Shown in pieces: positions 3,935-60,810 of a DNA stretch of 64,000 nt. The number at the start of each line of letters is the position of its first letter. Position 1 is the first letter of the stretch. Source of the stretch: Candidatus Nomurabacteria bacterium (GTDB taxonomy: Bacteria > Patescibacteriota > Patescibacteriia > UBA1558 > GWA2-36-10); NCBI GenBank assembly GCA_020632415.1, contig JACKFO010000002.1:322732-386731 (forward strand). Reading direction: 5' to 3'. Below the pieces are notes generated by a model that had not been told where the DNA came from, searched no databases, and saw nothing but the letters and a program-made list of their open reading frames with translations. Made by a program: the position numbers and the translations under genes.

Positions 3935-3975
3935 AAAGTCAAAAGGCTCGCCGATTTTTACTCTTTGAGCCTTTT
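3935..3975 (-). terminator. putative intrinsic terminator of the 79-aa gene
   Basis: Stem AAGGCTC/GAGCCTT with a U-rich tract on the minus strand. Confidence 0.35.
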
Positions 3976-3994
3976 TCCTAAATCATGCATGACT

Positions 3995-4234
3995 TCACTC
4001 TCCCAAGGCTTTTTTGGCCTGTTGATACTGACGAATCAACCAGAGACTGGCCAACACTCCCAAAACAAAACCGCCGCTCAGGAGCATCGCCAATTCAAGA
4101 TCTAGCACATCTTTGGTCATCGACCAAAACACACCACCCAAACAGCTGAGAGTGGCTATAACCGCCACAACGGAAAAGCCAAACCAATTGCTTTTGACCT
4201 GCTCCAGGTCTTTGAGTTCAGATGCACGTGACAT
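3995..4234 (-). CDS. small two-TM membrane protein (79 aa), compositionally atypical cassette gene
   Basis: GC about 48% against about 34% in the flanks. GGAGG 8 nt upstream of ATG (MSRASELKDLEQ...), which host genes lack. Two hydrophobic helices. Track ORF trimmed from 4249 to the SD-preceded ATG. Confidence 0.45.
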   Translation of the reverse strand: MSRASELKDLEQVKSNWFGFSVVAVIATLSCLGGVFWSMTKDVLDLELAMLLSGGFVLGVLASLWLIRQYQQAKKALGE

Positions 4235-4304
4235 CAGTCTATCCTCCAAATTGAAGAACCGTCATCTTGCTTTAAGTTTGACACAGAGCAAAAAATTTGT
4301 AAAA

Positions 4305-4338
4305 TAAAAAATCCTCTGAGACCTCAAAGGATTTTTTG
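4305..4338 (-). terminator. intrinsic terminator after the SIMPL-domain gene
   Basis: Stem AATCCTCTGAG/CTCAAAGGATT (one mismatch) followed by UUUUUUAUUUU on the minus strand. Confidence 0.55.
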
Positions 4339-4343
4339 CTAAA

Positions 4344-5096
4344 TTATTTAACTTTATAATTTAAATTTACCTCAACCACTAAATCATATTCACCGCTTGG
4401 CAGATAAGCTGGCGCTGCCTCAGCAGACAACATTGCGCCGCCTTTGCCATAAACATCATTGGCCGGATAATAATTTTCCCACCAACCAATGGTCTTTCCT
4501 AAACGCACACCAGTGGCTTTAGACATTTCTTTAGCTTTCATTTTAGCATCTGTAATTGCCTTTAATCTAGCTTCTTGTTTTAAATTTTCTAAATCAGCAG
4601 CTTCAAAATTTACACTGTTTACTTGATTAGCTCCGGCCTTGGTAGCCGCAGAAATCAAATTTCCAACAATGTTCTCTTGAGCTGAAAAATTATTAACAGT
4701 TATTATAACTGACTGATTGGCACTATAGCCGGCTAATTTTGAACTTCCTTCAAAATAATCATACTGCGGATAAAGATTGTAATTTCTGGTTTGAATATCT
4801 TTTTCTTCAATACCCTGATCTTTGATCGCCTGCAAAACTTGATTCATTTTTTGATTTAAGTTTTCTAGAGCCAAATTAGCATTAGCCGCTCGATCTACTT
4901 GCACGCCTAAATCAATTTTTGCTGTGTCAGGTAAATACGAAACCTCTCCTCGTCCAGTCACTGAAACTTGATACTGCGGATCATTGATAATTCGGTCTCT
5001 TAACAAAGCAACCACCAAAACAATAGTGATCAAGACCATCATGGTGATTTTTACCCACAAACGATGTGGCTGATAAACTTTTTGTTCGTTTTCCAT
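4344..5096 (-). CDS. SIMPL-domain (DUF541/YggE-like) periplasmic or membrane-anchored protein
   Basis: N-terminal TM anchor. Conserved SIMPL architecture (GRGEVSYLPDTAKIDLGV... KAKEMSKATGVRLGK... YDLVVEVNLNYKV). Confidence 0.75.
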   Translation of the reverse strand: MENEQKVYQPHRLWVKITMMVLITIVLVVALLRDRIINDPQYQVSVTGRGEVSYLPDTAKIDLGVQVDRAANANLALENLNQKMNQVLQAIKDQGIEEKDIQTRNYNLYPQYDYFEGSSKLAGYSANQSVIITVNNFSAQENIVGNLISAATKAGANQVNSVNFEAADLENLKQEARLKAITDAKMKAKEMSKATGVRLGKTIGWWENYYPANDVYGKGGAMLSAEAAPAYLPSGEYDLVVEVNLNYKVK

Positions 5097-5123
5097 ATAA
5101 TTAATTTATTATTTTTTAATCAT

Positions 5124-6734
5124 TTATTTCACGCTTGCTTTAATAAACTCTCTAAACAAAGGATGCGGTCTTAAGGGTCGAGATTTAAACTCTGGATGAA
5201 ATTGACTAGCGACAAAAAATGGGTGATCTTTTAGCTCAATAATTTCTAACAATCTTTTATCTGGTGAAAGGCCAGCCAGTCTCAAGCCAGCATTTTCTAA
5301 AACCTCTCGATAATCCATATTGAATTCATAACGATGTCGATGTCTTTCGTCGATTTTATTTGAGCCATAAGCTTTGAAGCTCAATGAATTTTTATCCAAA
5401 ACGCAAGGATAAGAACCAAGTCTTAAAGTGCCGCCCTTTTCTTCTTCTTCAGTGTGACCTGGCAAAATATGAATCACCGGATTTTTAGTCTTTTGATCAA
5501 ATTCGGTAGAGTTTACTTCGCTGGTTTTCAAAACATGACGAGTAAATTCAATTGTTGCCACTTGCATTCCAAGGCATAAGCCTAAATAAGGTTTTTTATG
5601 TTCACGAGCATATCTTGCAGCCATTATTTTTCCTTCTATTCCTCGATTTCCAAAACCACCGGGTACCAAAATACCTTTGGCCTTTTTTAATTTGTCCCAT
5701 TCAGCTTGGTCTTTTTTCTCTAATTTTGCAGCATTGACCCAAAGCAAATCTAAAGTAACATTATTAAAATAACAAGCTGATTTCAAAGCCTCCACGACAC
5801 TCAAATAAGCATCTAAATTTTGGTTATACTTTCCAACCAAAGCAATGCTTAATTTTTTCTTATGATTAGCTTTGATATTATTTACTAATTTCTCCCAATC
5901 TTCTAACTTAGCTTTTTTCTTAGCTAAGTTTAATTTTTCAAAAATAATCTCTGAAATATGATGTTTTTTCTCAAAATTAATCGGCACTTCATAAATTGTT
6001 TTGACAGTTGGCGCTGGAATCACTGCTTTTTCCTCCACATCAGCAAACAAAGCTATTTTTTCAATCGATTCTCGATCAATGGCTTTGTCTGATCTAGCTA
6101 AAATAATATCTGGCTGAATACCACGACGATAAAGCTCACGCACCGAAGCTTGAGTTGGTTTAGTTTTAAGCTCTCCAGAAGCCTTTAAAAAGGGCAATAA
6201 AGTCAAATGAACGAACAAAGCGTTATCTTGGCCAACTTCCCGATGAAACTGTCTAGCTGCCTCCAAATAAGGCTCTCCTTCAATATCACCGACAGTTCCT
6301 CCAATCTCAATCAACAAAATATCCGCCTTACTCTCTTCGGCTGCTTTTTTAATGTGATTTTTAATTTCATTGGTAATATGTGGGATGATCTGAATAGTTT
6401 TTCCTAAATAATCACCACTACGCTCTCCACGTAAAACTTTTTCATAAATCCGACCAGTGGTCAGATTTGATAGCTTAGACAAATTGGTGTCAATAAATCT
6501 TTCATAGTGTCCAAGATCTAAATCTGTCTCCGCCCCATCGTCAGTGACATAAACTTCACCGTGTTGGAAAGGACTCATTGTACCTGGATCGATATTTAGA
6601 TAAGGATCAAGTTTTAAAGTAAAAACTTTATGGCCACAAGATCTCAAAATTGCTCCAATTGAAGCTGAAGCAATTCCTTTGCCAAGCCCAGAACAAACTC
6701 CTCCAGTAATAAAAATGAATTTTGTTGACTGCAT
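5124..6734 (-). CDS. pyrG: CTP synthase
   Basis: [14 protein letters not shown]-loop, [11 protein letters not shown], and C-terminal class-I glutamine amidotransferase GLCLGMQ with His/Glu. Confidence 0.95.
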
Positions 6735-6826
6735 GAGAAAATGAATTTAAGATTTTTCAAAACAGAGACATTATAACAAATTTTATTTAAAAAAACAAAA
6801 ATGCCTCAACTTGTGAGGCATTTCTT

Positions 6827-59714: not shown

Positions 59715-59745
59715 CAAAAAACCACTCTTGCGAGTGGTTTTTAAA
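59715..59745. terminator. bidirectional terminator between recR and rplU
   Basis: AACCACTC-ttgc-GAGTGGTT flanked by A6 and T5. Confidence 0.65.
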
Positions 59746-59756
59746 TTGAATTTAAA

Positions 59757-60074
59757 CTAAGCGCTAATCTTTTCAATCTTAATTTCTGCTTTATGTTGAC
59801 GATGGCCAACGGTTTTCTTATAACGAGTTTTAGCTTTATACTTAACGACCGTTACTTTACGATCTTTAAAATTCTTGACCAAAGTAGCTTCTACTTTAGC
59901 GCCTTTAATAATTGGATCGCCTAAAGTAACATTATCTTTATCATCAGCGATTAACAAAACATCATCAAAAACTACTTTTTCACCATCTTGTTTGGTTGGT
60001 AATTTTTCAATGCTTAAAACATCACCTTGTTTTACTTGATATTGTTTCCCGCCGGTTTTAATTACTGCTAACAT
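59757..60074 (-). CDS. rplU: 50S ribosomal protein L21
   Basis: MLAVIKTGGKQYQVKQGDVLSIEKL is the canonical L21 sequence. Track ORF trimmed from 60116. Not adjacent to rpmA in this genome. Confidence 0.88.
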   Translation of the reverse strand: MLAVIKTGGKQYQVKQGDVLSIEKLPTKQDGEKVVFDDVLLIADDKDNVTLGDPIIKGAKVEATLVKNFKDRKVTVVKYKAKTRYKKTVGHRQHKAEIKIEKISA

Positions 60075-60182
60075 ATTTTTTATAATTTTTCTAAAAAAGT
60101 ACTCATAGATTAGCAAAAAATCATTATATTGTCAACCTCAGGTATAAAAATATCCCAATTGCCCTGCATAAAATCAAATGGG

Positions 60183-60211
60183 TTGACAAAATATATATTA
60201 TATGATATAAT
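60183..60211 (+). promoter_or_regulatory. consensus promoter TTGACA-17(ends TGA)-TATAAT for the cassette-E gene
   Basis: -35 60183-60188, -10 60206-60211. RBS GGAGG at 60250-60254. Confidence 0.55.
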
Positions 60212-60260
60212 ACCAAAGAATTGGACATTTTCACAACAAAAGCAGCAGTTGGAGGAAATC

Positions 60261-60737
60261 ATGAATTGGCGAAAAATTGCACTTCTGTGCCTACTTCTTG
60301 CTTTGCCGATGTGGATGCTGATCCGTTCTATGCTGCCTTCGCAGTCAGTTATGGAACAGCTCCAGGAGATCGCCGATCGAACTCCCATTCACTTCGCTTT
60401 GTTGGTCGATGGACAGAGAATCGAGTATTTCGGCTTTGCCATCGATACCAGCACAGCAGCGGATACGAGTTTCGTCGAAAATCTCTACTTCTACGATCAA
60501 GTCGTGATCTGCAACATTCCAGGAGAGAACCAGTACCTCGAAGTACTCAAGGACACCCTGGATACGATCGACCCTCTGGGCACAGTCAAAGATCACGCTC
60601 CATTGGTCGGAGGCGACTACATCATCGAAGCCTACGATGCTTGGACGGATTCCCTCAAGTTCAGAGCGCGAATTCGCGCCGAACACATTGACGGAGAACC
60701 GTACATCTTCGATGATCAGAACCTTGTCAACAACTGA
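60261..60737 (+). CDS. secreted ORFan (158 aa, cassette E)
   Basis: GC about 55%. Signal peptide MNWRKIALLCLLLALPMW. Start trimmed to the SD-preceded ATG. No known domain. Confidence 0.5.
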   Translation: MNWRKIALLCLLLALPMWMLIRSMLPSQSVMEQLQEIADRTPIHFALLVDGQRIEYFGFAIDTSTAADTSFVENLYFYDQVVICNIPGENQYLEVLKDTLDTIDPLGTVKDHAPLVGGDYIIEAYDAWTDSLKFRARIRAEHIDGEPYIFDDQNLVNN

Positions 60738-60758
60738 CGCCCCCAATCCCCCCGGATC

Positions 60759-60810
60759 GATCCCGGCACAACACAGCAGCAGCTGTCGCGTGTCGGGATC
60801 ATTTTTATTT
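60759..60810 (+). terminator. intrinsic terminator of cassette E; its T-tract overlaps the stop codon of the convergent sufU
   Basis: GATCCCGGCACA...TGTCGGGATC followed by ATTTTTATTT. The sufU TAA is the complement of 60809-60811. Confidence 0.45.

Follow-up and report, generated by a model that had tools for sequence, protein, structure and literature searches.

GC-rich, Shine-Dalgarno-led gene units dispersed in an AT-rich Candidatus Nomurabacteria genome: a probable second expression class

Background

Enterobacterial O-antigen and capsule loci encode surface structures, have a persistently low GC content and swap alleles via their conserved flanks. In the Bacteroidota, the genes led by a Shine-Dalgarno (SD) sequence include rpsU, encoding bS21. 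According to the account of Jha et al. 2021 given in PMC9723584, translation in this phylum is SD-independent, with few genes still SD-led and with sequestration of the anti-SD sequence. Here we describe a 64 kb stretch of a Candidatus Nomurabacteria (Patescibacteria/CPR) genome (called the window below), in which 10 self-contained units with 11 open reading frames (ORFs) are scattered between about 50 AT-rich housekeeping genes. Each unit, or cassette, consists of a promoter, an SD-type leader, a GC-rich ORF and a hairpin-plus-T terminator. We consider it probable that the units are native, vertically inherited genes and form a second expression class, with monocistronic transcripts that are GC-rich and SD-dependent, in a genome whose other genes lack an SD.

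The analysis covers the window and the loci fetched from its relatives, all of which are metagenome contigs (labelled L002 to L010, L027, L028, L030, L031 and ERZ1426840). GC3 denotes the GC content of third codon positions.

Two gene populations in the window

The mean GC content of the window is 0.36 (36%). A preliminary description had proposed compositionally foreign cassettes embedded among the housekeeping genes, and a scan of the window bears out the GC islands that it had located, at 0.48-0.59. These lie at 3981-4260 (0.48), 23461-24540 (0.52), 24711-25610 (0.59), 31271-32710 (0.48), 49911-50500 (0.53), 53971-54630 (0.55), about 56740-57300 (0.49) and 60241-60850 (0.50). Structured RNA genes were considered as their source and rejected: Rfam and ARAGORN identify six tRNAs only, none of them within the islands. 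A further local GC peak (0.51, at 1115-1204) is a 45-nt tandem repeat within a zinc-finger gene (716-1246, minus strand; GC3 0.15), that is, a repeat in a host-type gene and not a cassette. ORF 16-363 (plus strand) is spurious; the true gene there is a host gene on the minus strand.

The eight cassette ORFs of at least 60 amino acids (aa) encode proteins of 79-449 aa and have a GC3 of 0.37-0.81 in the gene table. All eight carry GGAGG, AGGAG or GGAG 5-8 nt 5' of the ATG. The mini-ORFs of 22, 28 and 32 aa (GC3 0.52, 0.83 and 1.00, respectively) each have an SD as well. In the approximately 50 host genes, GC3 is 0.15-0.34 (median 0.27), and an SD-type motif is missing upstream of 47/50 in the motif table, with two to three exceptions by other criteria. 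This SD-less, low-GC3 set includes pyrG, murA, lexA, bL9, bL27, bL21, ftsEX, corA, dus, fpg, fba, tpiA, scpAB, three class II aminoacyl-tRNA synthetases, a P-type ATPase, argS, dnaB, ybaB, recR and sufS/nifU (names from Pfam assignments). High GC3 is coupled to the SD in the window (Fisher p 2.4e-6). If a canonical anti-SD is assumed, the predicted anti-SD duplex has an energy of -5.8 to -13.5 kcal/mol for the cassettes compared with a host mean of -0.5 (p 5e-7), and just 2/50 host genes reach -6 kcal/mol or lower. Host leaders are 85% A+T and 9% G; position -1 is T in 76% of them and position -5 is A in 70%.

The preliminary description had gone somewhat further than this. It held every listed ORF to be strongly atypical, which applies to most of them but not to 45053-45439 (c128), whose GC (0.40) and GC3 (0.37) are only mildly so, although its third-position A is 0.14 compared with 0.33 in the host. 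It also gave each ORF a canonical GGAGG. An SD is indeed present upstream of every one, but it is AGGAG in c449 and in the 22-aa and 32-aa ORFs, and GGAG only in c180. The statement that no host gene has an SD is correct for the 47 genes counted above, but not for a gene for a DacA-like D-Ala-D-Ala carboxypeptidase (38524-39426, minus strand; GC3 0.27). This gene has AGGAG 8 nt upstream, apparently lies within an operon and is the sole clear SD bearer with host composition in the window.

The units, named after the length of their proteins, are as follows (TM, transmembrane; UTR, untranslated region).

c79, 3935..4300, minus strand: ORF 3995-4234, 79 aa with two predicted TM helices; GGAGG 8 nt upstream; GC 0.49, GC3 0.54 compared with about 0.27 in the host; hairpin and T-tract 3' of the stop; only a weakly consensus-like promoter site (site and hairpin spotted by eye).

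c327, 23476..24649, minus strand: promoter 24649-24621, 101-nt leader, GGAGG, ORF 23530-24513, terminator stem 23508-23476; 327 aa, signal peptide, all-beta; GC3 0.54.

c248, 24680..25609, plus strand: promoter 24680-24708 (12/12 consensus positions), 39-nt CA-rich leader, GGAGG, ORF 24754-25500; 248 aa, signal peptide; GC3 0.81; two terminator hairpins, ending at 25609.

c449, 31289..32815, minus strand: promoter 32815-32787 (12/12, TG-extended), 92-nt leader, AGGAG, ORF 31339-32688; 449 aa, an N-terminal TM region and a weakly SPFH/Band-7-like C-terminal part; terminator at about 31289-31330; GC3 0.52.

c128, 45009..45529, minus strand: promoter 45529-45501 (11/12, TG-extended), 55-nt leader, GGAGG 5 nt upstream of the start, ORF 45053-45439, terminator 45028-45009; 128 aa, cytoplasmic.

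c22+c149, 49747..50489, plus strand: promoter about 49747-49775, 112-nt leader, SD-led ORF of 22 aa (49894-49962), then ORF 49980-50429 with GGAGG; 149 aa, Ala-rich, multi-TM, with an internal 45-nt repeat; bidirectional terminator 50464-50489.

c180, 53923..54617, plus strand: promoter 53923-53951 (TG-extended), 58-nt leader, GGAG, ORF 54016-54558, terminator 54589-54617; 180 aa, acidic, cytoplasmic; GC3 0.79.

Mini-unit 1, 56730..56968, plus strand: promoter 56730-56757, GGAGG, 28-aa ORF 56812-56898 (GC3 0.83), terminator 56936-56958; lies immediately downstream of tRNA-Lys.

Mini-unit 2, 56976..57280, plus strand: promoter 56976-57004 (11/12), 92-nt leader, AGGAG, 32-aa ORF 57103-57201 (GC3 1.00), terminator 57248-57270, with the same sequence as in mini-unit 1 (39 nt, repeat family D14).

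c158, 60183..60810, plus strand: promoter 60183-60211 (12/12, TG-extended), 43-nt leader, GGAGG 5 nt upstream, ORF 60261-60737; 158 aa with a signal or anchor at the N-terminus; the hairpin in the 3' UTR is GC-rich and ends at about 60803.

Conservation of the units in relatives

Three of the units are conserved in syntenic positions. In L002 (ERR14369873), the closest relative, the order fpg-sdpI-[c449 orthologue]-DUF5663 is kept. The flanking proteins are 77-82% identical to those of the window and the c449 orthologue 69.5% identical at the aa level. Its GC3 is 0.48 compared with 0.21-0.25 in its neighbours, and its unit starts with a TTGACA-17-TATAAT promoter, has a leader of some 90 nt with GAGGAG as the SD, and is closed by a terminator. 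Between the two c449 genes the ratio of nonsynonymous to synonymous change (dN/dS) is 0.17 and changes are mostly at third positions; judged by this pattern, the cassettes are evolving as protein-coding genes under purifying selection.

A longer block, fpg-sdpI-[c449]-DUF5663-55aa-giant-[c248, plus]-[c327, minus]-CAP, is found in L027, L030, L031 and ERZ1426840. Core proteins of L027/L031 are 36-64% identical to those of the window, and the c449 orthologue in L031, in the same slot, has 28% aa identity. The composition is similar throughout, the three cassettes having a GC3 of 0.48-0.81 compared with 0.21-0.30 in neighbouring genes: GC3 is 0.54 for c327 in the window and 0.62-0.63 in L027/L031, 0.81 for c248 and 0.71-0.78 in relatives (0.76-0.78 in L027/L031), and 0.52 for c449 and 0.48-0.52 in relatives. 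The neighbours of the L027/L031 cassettes have a GC3 of 0.21-0.28, except sdpI (0.38) in L031. The L027/L031 cassettes also retain GCGGAGGA ahead of the start codon. Among orthologues of each of c327, c248 and c449 the GGAGG core is conserved and the spacer is variable, which argues that something reads the GGAGG. Cassette proteins are mostly faster-evolving than core proteins; c327 (48-50% identity) is inside the core range.

The preliminary description had looked to related genomes for absence of the cassettes at exactly these junctions. Instead, c327, c248 and c449 are present in the slots of L002, L027, L030 and L031, and the c180 junction is the only slot found empty in distant relatives. 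An exhaustive HMMER search for c248 found six homologues among 1.84 billion representatives. Four of the five that were looked up have a readable context and all four lie in the same neighbourhood (L028 and L030 show part of it); the contigs of homologues P0005 and P0007 are too short for context. Searches of 5.8 billion proteins with c449, c180 and c327, and of the 1.84 billion representatives with c248, gave no donor homologues. Every cassette homologue found is an orthologue from the same clade in a syntenic position, unless its contig is too short for the context to be seen.

c449, c180 and c327 are present at NCBI as H6761_01745, H6761_01875 and H6761_01720 of Candidatus Nomurabacteria, on a contig of 842,326 bp. 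Public gene calls differ from ours at several starts. H6761_01745 is 345 aa long (77% of the 449-aa ORF) and appears truncated at its start; Logan gene calls give c248 311 aa and c158 192 aa, compared with 248 and 158 aa from the SD-led starts, and c79 is uncalled.

Maintained composition

Amelioration was assessed at synonymous third positions with a conserved amino acid, using a two-state model of strong (G+C) and weak (A+T) bases and taking the flanking host genes as a neutral clock. 'Memory' is the fraction of the original strong/weak state still common to two lineages. Between the window and L002, host memory is 0.22, and c449 would have had an ancestral GC3 of 0.67 (0.59-0.83), a feasible value. 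For the window compared with L031/L027, host memory is 0.14-0.17 and cassette memory 0.09-0.23, with c449 at approximately 0; synonymous sites of the cassettes have thus turned over. GC3 at these synonymous sites in both lineages is 0.55-0.57 for c327, 0.72-0.74 for c248 and 0.40 for c449. To arrive at these values by neutral decay at the host rate, c327 would have to descend from an ancestral GC3 of 1.0-1.1 and c248 from one of 1.5, which is impossible. A gene with GC3 0.91 in L008/L009 likewise implies an ancestral value of 1.53 (1.41-1.70), and a gene with GC3 0.69 there implies 1.12.

Because synonymous sites are near saturation and the required ancestral GC3 exceeds 1, the composition would be maintained and not decaying. 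The comparison gives strong support for c248, c327 and the L008/L009 genes being in a steady state with a GC3 much higher than in the genes around them. On this evidence we conclude that the GC-rich composition and the SD have both been actively maintained over long evolutionary periods and are not the decaying trace of a transfer.

Promoters, transcripts and start regions

TTGACA-17-TATAAT promoters, matched at 10-12 of 12 positions and often TG-extended, were found by the scan ahead of 8/10 units, and strong hairpin-plus-T terminators lie 3' of the units. A promoter of this kind had been claimed for each cassette; that of c22+c149 was called by eye (as were the terminators of c449 and c158, which are not in the scan list), but c79 has a weak site only. 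The description of the units as autonomous, with their own hairpin-plus-T terminators, holds. The promoter type is native and not cassette-specific, because tRNA-Lys(UUU) and host operons use it: a perfect TTGACA-17-TATAAT (12/12) at 56562-56590 (plus strand) lies directly upstream of the tRNA, and several host operons also carry this type.

Along the units, GC is 0.18-0.33 in the promoter, 0.35-0.52 in the 5' UTR, 0.40-0.62 in the coding sequence and 0.45-0.67 in the 3' UTR and terminator, and falls to 0.13-0.35 in the following 60 nt. As far as the SD, the leaders contain little G and are rich in C and A. An AT-rich promoter beside a GC-rich coding sequence had been considered unnatural. The c248 promoter region argues otherwise: it contains a 45-nt block with one variable position across four lineages in which synonymous sites are saturated.

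Start regions (-30 to +30) are more structured in the cassettes than in the host (minimum free energy -9.0 compared with -4.3 kcal/mol, p 8e-6), as are interior windows (-14.6 compared with -7.9 kcal/mol). The amino-acid composition and all three codon positions of the cassettes are shifted towards GC. Third positions track the local strand skew, plus-strand units being C-rich and minus-strand units G/T-rich; long residence would produce such a skew. Codon use is mixed, amino acids not being restricted to a single codon each. For lysine, AAG is favoured over AAA, and the sole tRNA-Lys seen has the anticodon UUU. A search for motif avoidance in the cassette RNAs showed nothing specific, only a general TA depletion, and apart from the SD and the native promoter consensus no operator common to the units is seen. 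A repeat search of the whole window gave no flanking repeats common to the cassettes; the sole cassette-linked repeat is the duplicated terminator of the mini-units.

The 28-aa and 32-aa peptides of the mini-units have a common motif, KSTEIV, in which, read by eye, the three codon differences are all synonymous. Their transcripts have an unusually stable predicted fold (z -4.4 to -4.6, with -4.6 for mini-unit 1), and from such folding predictions they might be dual-function small RNAs. Logan contig L046 stops just upstream of dnaB, next to the mini-unit repeat.

The same two classes across the lineage

A scan with ArgRS retrieved L003-L010, whose ArgRS proteins are 53-56% identical to that of the window and in which the core order ATPase-argS-...-dnaB-ybaB-recR-bL21 is kept. 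In L003-L010, too, SD-less genes of low GC3 occur alongside SD-led genes of high GC3 (pooled odds ratio 46 for the association, p 3.8e-9), and, as in the window, most genes have no SD. The argS-dnaB slot, which in the window contains tRNA-Lys and the two mini-units, contains an SD-led or GC-rich gene in 6/8 relatives. The slot after bL21, occupied by c158 in the window, contains GC-rich genes, mostly SD-led, in 6/6 relatives that reach it (L003, L004 and L007-L010). Here the small proteins (about 125-130 aa) have a signal peptide or membrane anchor, and larger GC-rich proteins also occur.

BLASTP among the window cassettes and against those of the relatives shows no homology save between true orthologues, and slots between core genes contain differing, non-homologous cassettes in different relatives. 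The gene class is, from these comparisons, evidently old with members still gained or lost, the latter because the c180 slot is occupied only in the window and c180 has no homologue.

A GC-rich gene pair adjoins the ATPase gene in L008 (4376-6777) and L009 (4380-6781), both on the minus strand. It encodes a 545-aa protein, the N-terminus of which looks, by eye, similar to a GHKL/MORC-like ATPase motif, and an SD-led 242-aa protein that may contain a helix-turn-helix, and it may be a defence-like module of the same compositional class. L003-L006, L008 and L009 were deposited as metagenome-assembled genomes (MAGs) of 'uncultured Gammaproteobacteria bacterium'; these labels are probably taxonomic errors.

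Proteins and possible role

As the preliminary description had stated, the cassette proteins match no known family: searches of Pfam, NCBIfam, PHROGs, PADLOC and PDB sequences gave no match, with only a sub-threshold Band-7/SPFH similarity for c449. Six of the eight larger proteins (c79, c327, c248, c449, c149 and c158) have a signal peptide or TM segments. Neighbours of the cassettes include a CAP-domain protein, a cadherin-like protein and a giant acidic protein.

L027 and L031 illustrate the variability of these genes. Their flanking DNA is 98-99% identical, while the mature region of c248 has 45% aa identity. The allele has been swapped (L027 4047-4749, L031 4051-4771) with breakpoints inside the unit, leaving the signal peptide, promoter and terminator conserved, and both alleles have a GC3 of about 0.76. 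In the same pair c327 is 99% identical, and the giant protein and c449 are partly mosaic, the former with a GC3 of 0.22-0.24. A diversity-generating retroelement was rejected as the source of the c248 variation, which affects the whole mature protein and not adenine-linked short-repeat sites. The giant protein itself (25623-30722, minus strand) has 1699 aa, is acidic, has no Pfam match, a GC3 of 0.22 and no SD. Among relatives it ranges from 1331 to 1843 aa, and is 83% identical between strains with 98-99% identical flanks, a mosaic pattern.

The bias towards exported and membrane proteins, lineage restriction, fast evolution, strain variability and the nature of the neighbours together suggest that the class could have cell-surface or host-interaction functions. 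In a low-confidence structure model, c327 looks like an outer-membrane-type beta-barrel. The lineage of Candidatus Nomurabacteria is generally thought to have no outer membrane.

Explanations considered

If the units are a native second class, the bulk genes, AT-rich and often in operons, would start translation from G-poor, A/U-rich, SD-less, unstructured leaders. A cassette unit has a sigma-70-type promoter of the native kind (TTGACAAA, spacer, TG-extended TATAAT), a leader of 40-110 nt, a strong GGAGG-type SD, a transcript that is GC-rich up to and including the 3' UTR, and an intrinsic terminator. Because cassette start regions are more structured than host starts, SD/anti-SD pairing would most likely be needed to recruit the 30S subunit, and this SD dependence would make the cassettes a separately controllable translational class. 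We tentatively attribute the GC-richness to selection on the transcript (mRNA stability or abundance, or a single SD-led ribosome entry), because the enrichment begins at about the transcription start and does not extend past the terminator. Translational codon optimisation was rejected as a cause: ribosomal protein genes are unbiased, and the preferred AAG is accompanied only by tRNA-Lys(UUU).

A number of points weigh against the native second class. The genes for bL9, bL27 and bL21 are AT-rich and SD-less, and the class is not simply that of highly expressed genes. Avoidance of internal SD-like motifs in the cassettes is not significant. The amelioration test uses a few hundred sites and a simple model, neutral decay of c449 from an ancestral GC3 of about 0.65-0.67 is feasible, and mixed acquisition ages would also give the spread of GC3 among the units (0.37-1.0). 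The sole match of c180 in 5.8 billion proteins is itself (H6761_01875), the ATPase-argS slot that it occupies contains no ORF of at least 60 aa in L003-L010, and some members may be recent gains. Finally, an anti-SD motif is found in only 48% of Parcubacteria and bS21 is frequently lost (Tsurumaki et al. 2022, PMC9297842). If the lineage lacks CCUCC in its 16S rRNA, SD-dependent initiation by its own ribosomes fails; Rfam finds no 16S rRNA gene in the window, nor is there one in any fetched relative locus.

The c180 and c449 results and the GC3 spread would fit horizontal acquisition from GC-richer donors (the bacterial host, phages or other bacteria), with the SD included and with native promoters, and still ameliorating. 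So would the shift of amino acids and all codon positions to GC, and the non-homologous cassettes in the same slots of different relatives. We consider this unlikely, and give no greater weight to the associated proposal that the GC3 range reflects different acquisition ages. The cassettes searched have no donor homologue, their matches being syntenic, of the same clade or without context. c327 and c248 have kept a GC3 of 0.54-0.81 past synonymous saturation, with the unattainable ancestral values of 1.0-1.5 (and likewise in L008/L009). The cassettes carry the local replication-strand skew and are without mobile-element hallmarks, flanking repeats or PHROG matches. An origin in phages or defence systems was rejected, with no relative of c327 on a viral contig and no PHROG or PADLOC match, and an external reservoir of GC-rich genes is unsupported, the homologues with visible context all being in the same AT-rich syntenic setting and without a phage match. 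GC-biased gene conversion (gBGC), or another recombination-linked bias at allele-swapping hot spots, seems to us more doubtful still. The replacement of the c248 allele within its unit between nearly identical strains and the part-mosaic giant protein and c449 are in its favour, as is the GC enrichment of non-coding 3' UTRs as well as codons. However, c327 is not hypervariable between those strains and is equally GC-rich, while the part-mosaic giant protein remains AT-rich. Heteroduplex repair cannot act within allele cores too divergent to pair, and the gBGC effects reported for bacteria amount to a few percent of GC3, not to 25 to 80%.

Near-consensus promoters, GGAGG and clean terminators do give the units a designed look. 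An artefact (assembly chimera, contamination or engineered codon-optimised inserts) is nevertheless virtually discounted by orthologous units with 28-70% protein identity in at least six unrelated sequencing projects, by the mixed codon use and by the dN/dS of 0.17. The same sequence also occurs in a separate public assembly: an Illumina-based Logan contig (SRR12358676) matches window 20066-34513, which contains three units, at 100% identity, and further Logan contigs (SRR12358676 and SRR12358675) cover other parts of the window, although these may be the MAG's own reads. We therefore reject a chimera or a planted or engineered insert on the basis of the orthologues and the identical Logan contig. 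The very recent capture or deliberate construction proposed in the preliminary description is also refuted, as distant relatives have syntenic orthologues with the same composition and SD, a finding that this description had itself named as speaking against it. A metagenome scan for closer relatives of the 44-64 kb half found none on long contigs. It is also conceivable, but very improbable, that the cassettes are built for expression in a different cell, the episymbiont's bacterial host. The sigma-70 promoter, strong SD, host-like GC-rich codons and terminator would suit the ribosomes of such a host; in a lineage without an anti-SD (about half of Parcubacteria, PMC9297842), its own ribosomes could not use GGAGG; and the putative beta-barrel c327 would be sensible only in a diderm partner. 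Were this so, the cassettes would be a counterpart, in bacteria, of T-DNA-style effector genes.

Implications

If the units are indeed a native second class, one small genome would maintain two stable gene 'dialects', AT-rich and SD-less or GC-rich and SD-led, beyond synonymous saturation. This challenges the routine use of atypical GC as a sign of recent transfer and points to selection on transcript composition or to some gene-specific bias. Detectors of horizontal gene transfer would mislabel all these units, and public gene calls depart from the SD-led starts or miss c79. The system could also provide a handle on translation start in bacteria of the candidate phyla radiation, which have unusual ribosomes and in which the anti-SD is reported missing in many Parcubacteria. 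The orphan envelope proteins, part of them strain-variable, are candidates for host interaction.

Comparison with known systems

A search of the literature turned up no account of such genes as a class. In function, the nearest parallel is the Bacteroidota regime, where almost all genes are also SD-less with A/U-rich, G-poor leaders and a small minority has a strong SD and could be a set translated separately. bS21 is often absent in Parcubacteria (PMC9297842). The SD-led minority in the window differs in that its transcripts are also GC-rich and monocistronic and encode orphan envelope proteins, whereas the Bacteroidota minority encodes ribosomal or regulatory proteins.

Genomic islets and phage 'morons' resemble the cassettes in having their own promoter and terminator, an atypical composition, a position between unrelated genes and some variable slots. 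However, the cassettes are without phage or mobile-element context, flanking repeats or donor homologues, and three of them have been inherited vertically in syntenic positions over deep divergence without any fall in GC3. Integron cassettes are likewise small, single-ORF, dispersed-looking and rich in orphan proteins. They are typically promoterless, while each unit in the window has its own promoter; in addition, no attC-like repeats were found in the window and no integrase-like gene was noticed among its annotated genes. The enterobacterial O-antigen and capsule loci share with the cassettes a lasting deviant composition and allele replacement (as in c248). Unlike these loci, the cassettes combine high GC in a low-GC genome with single-gene units and a distinct translation-initiation signal.

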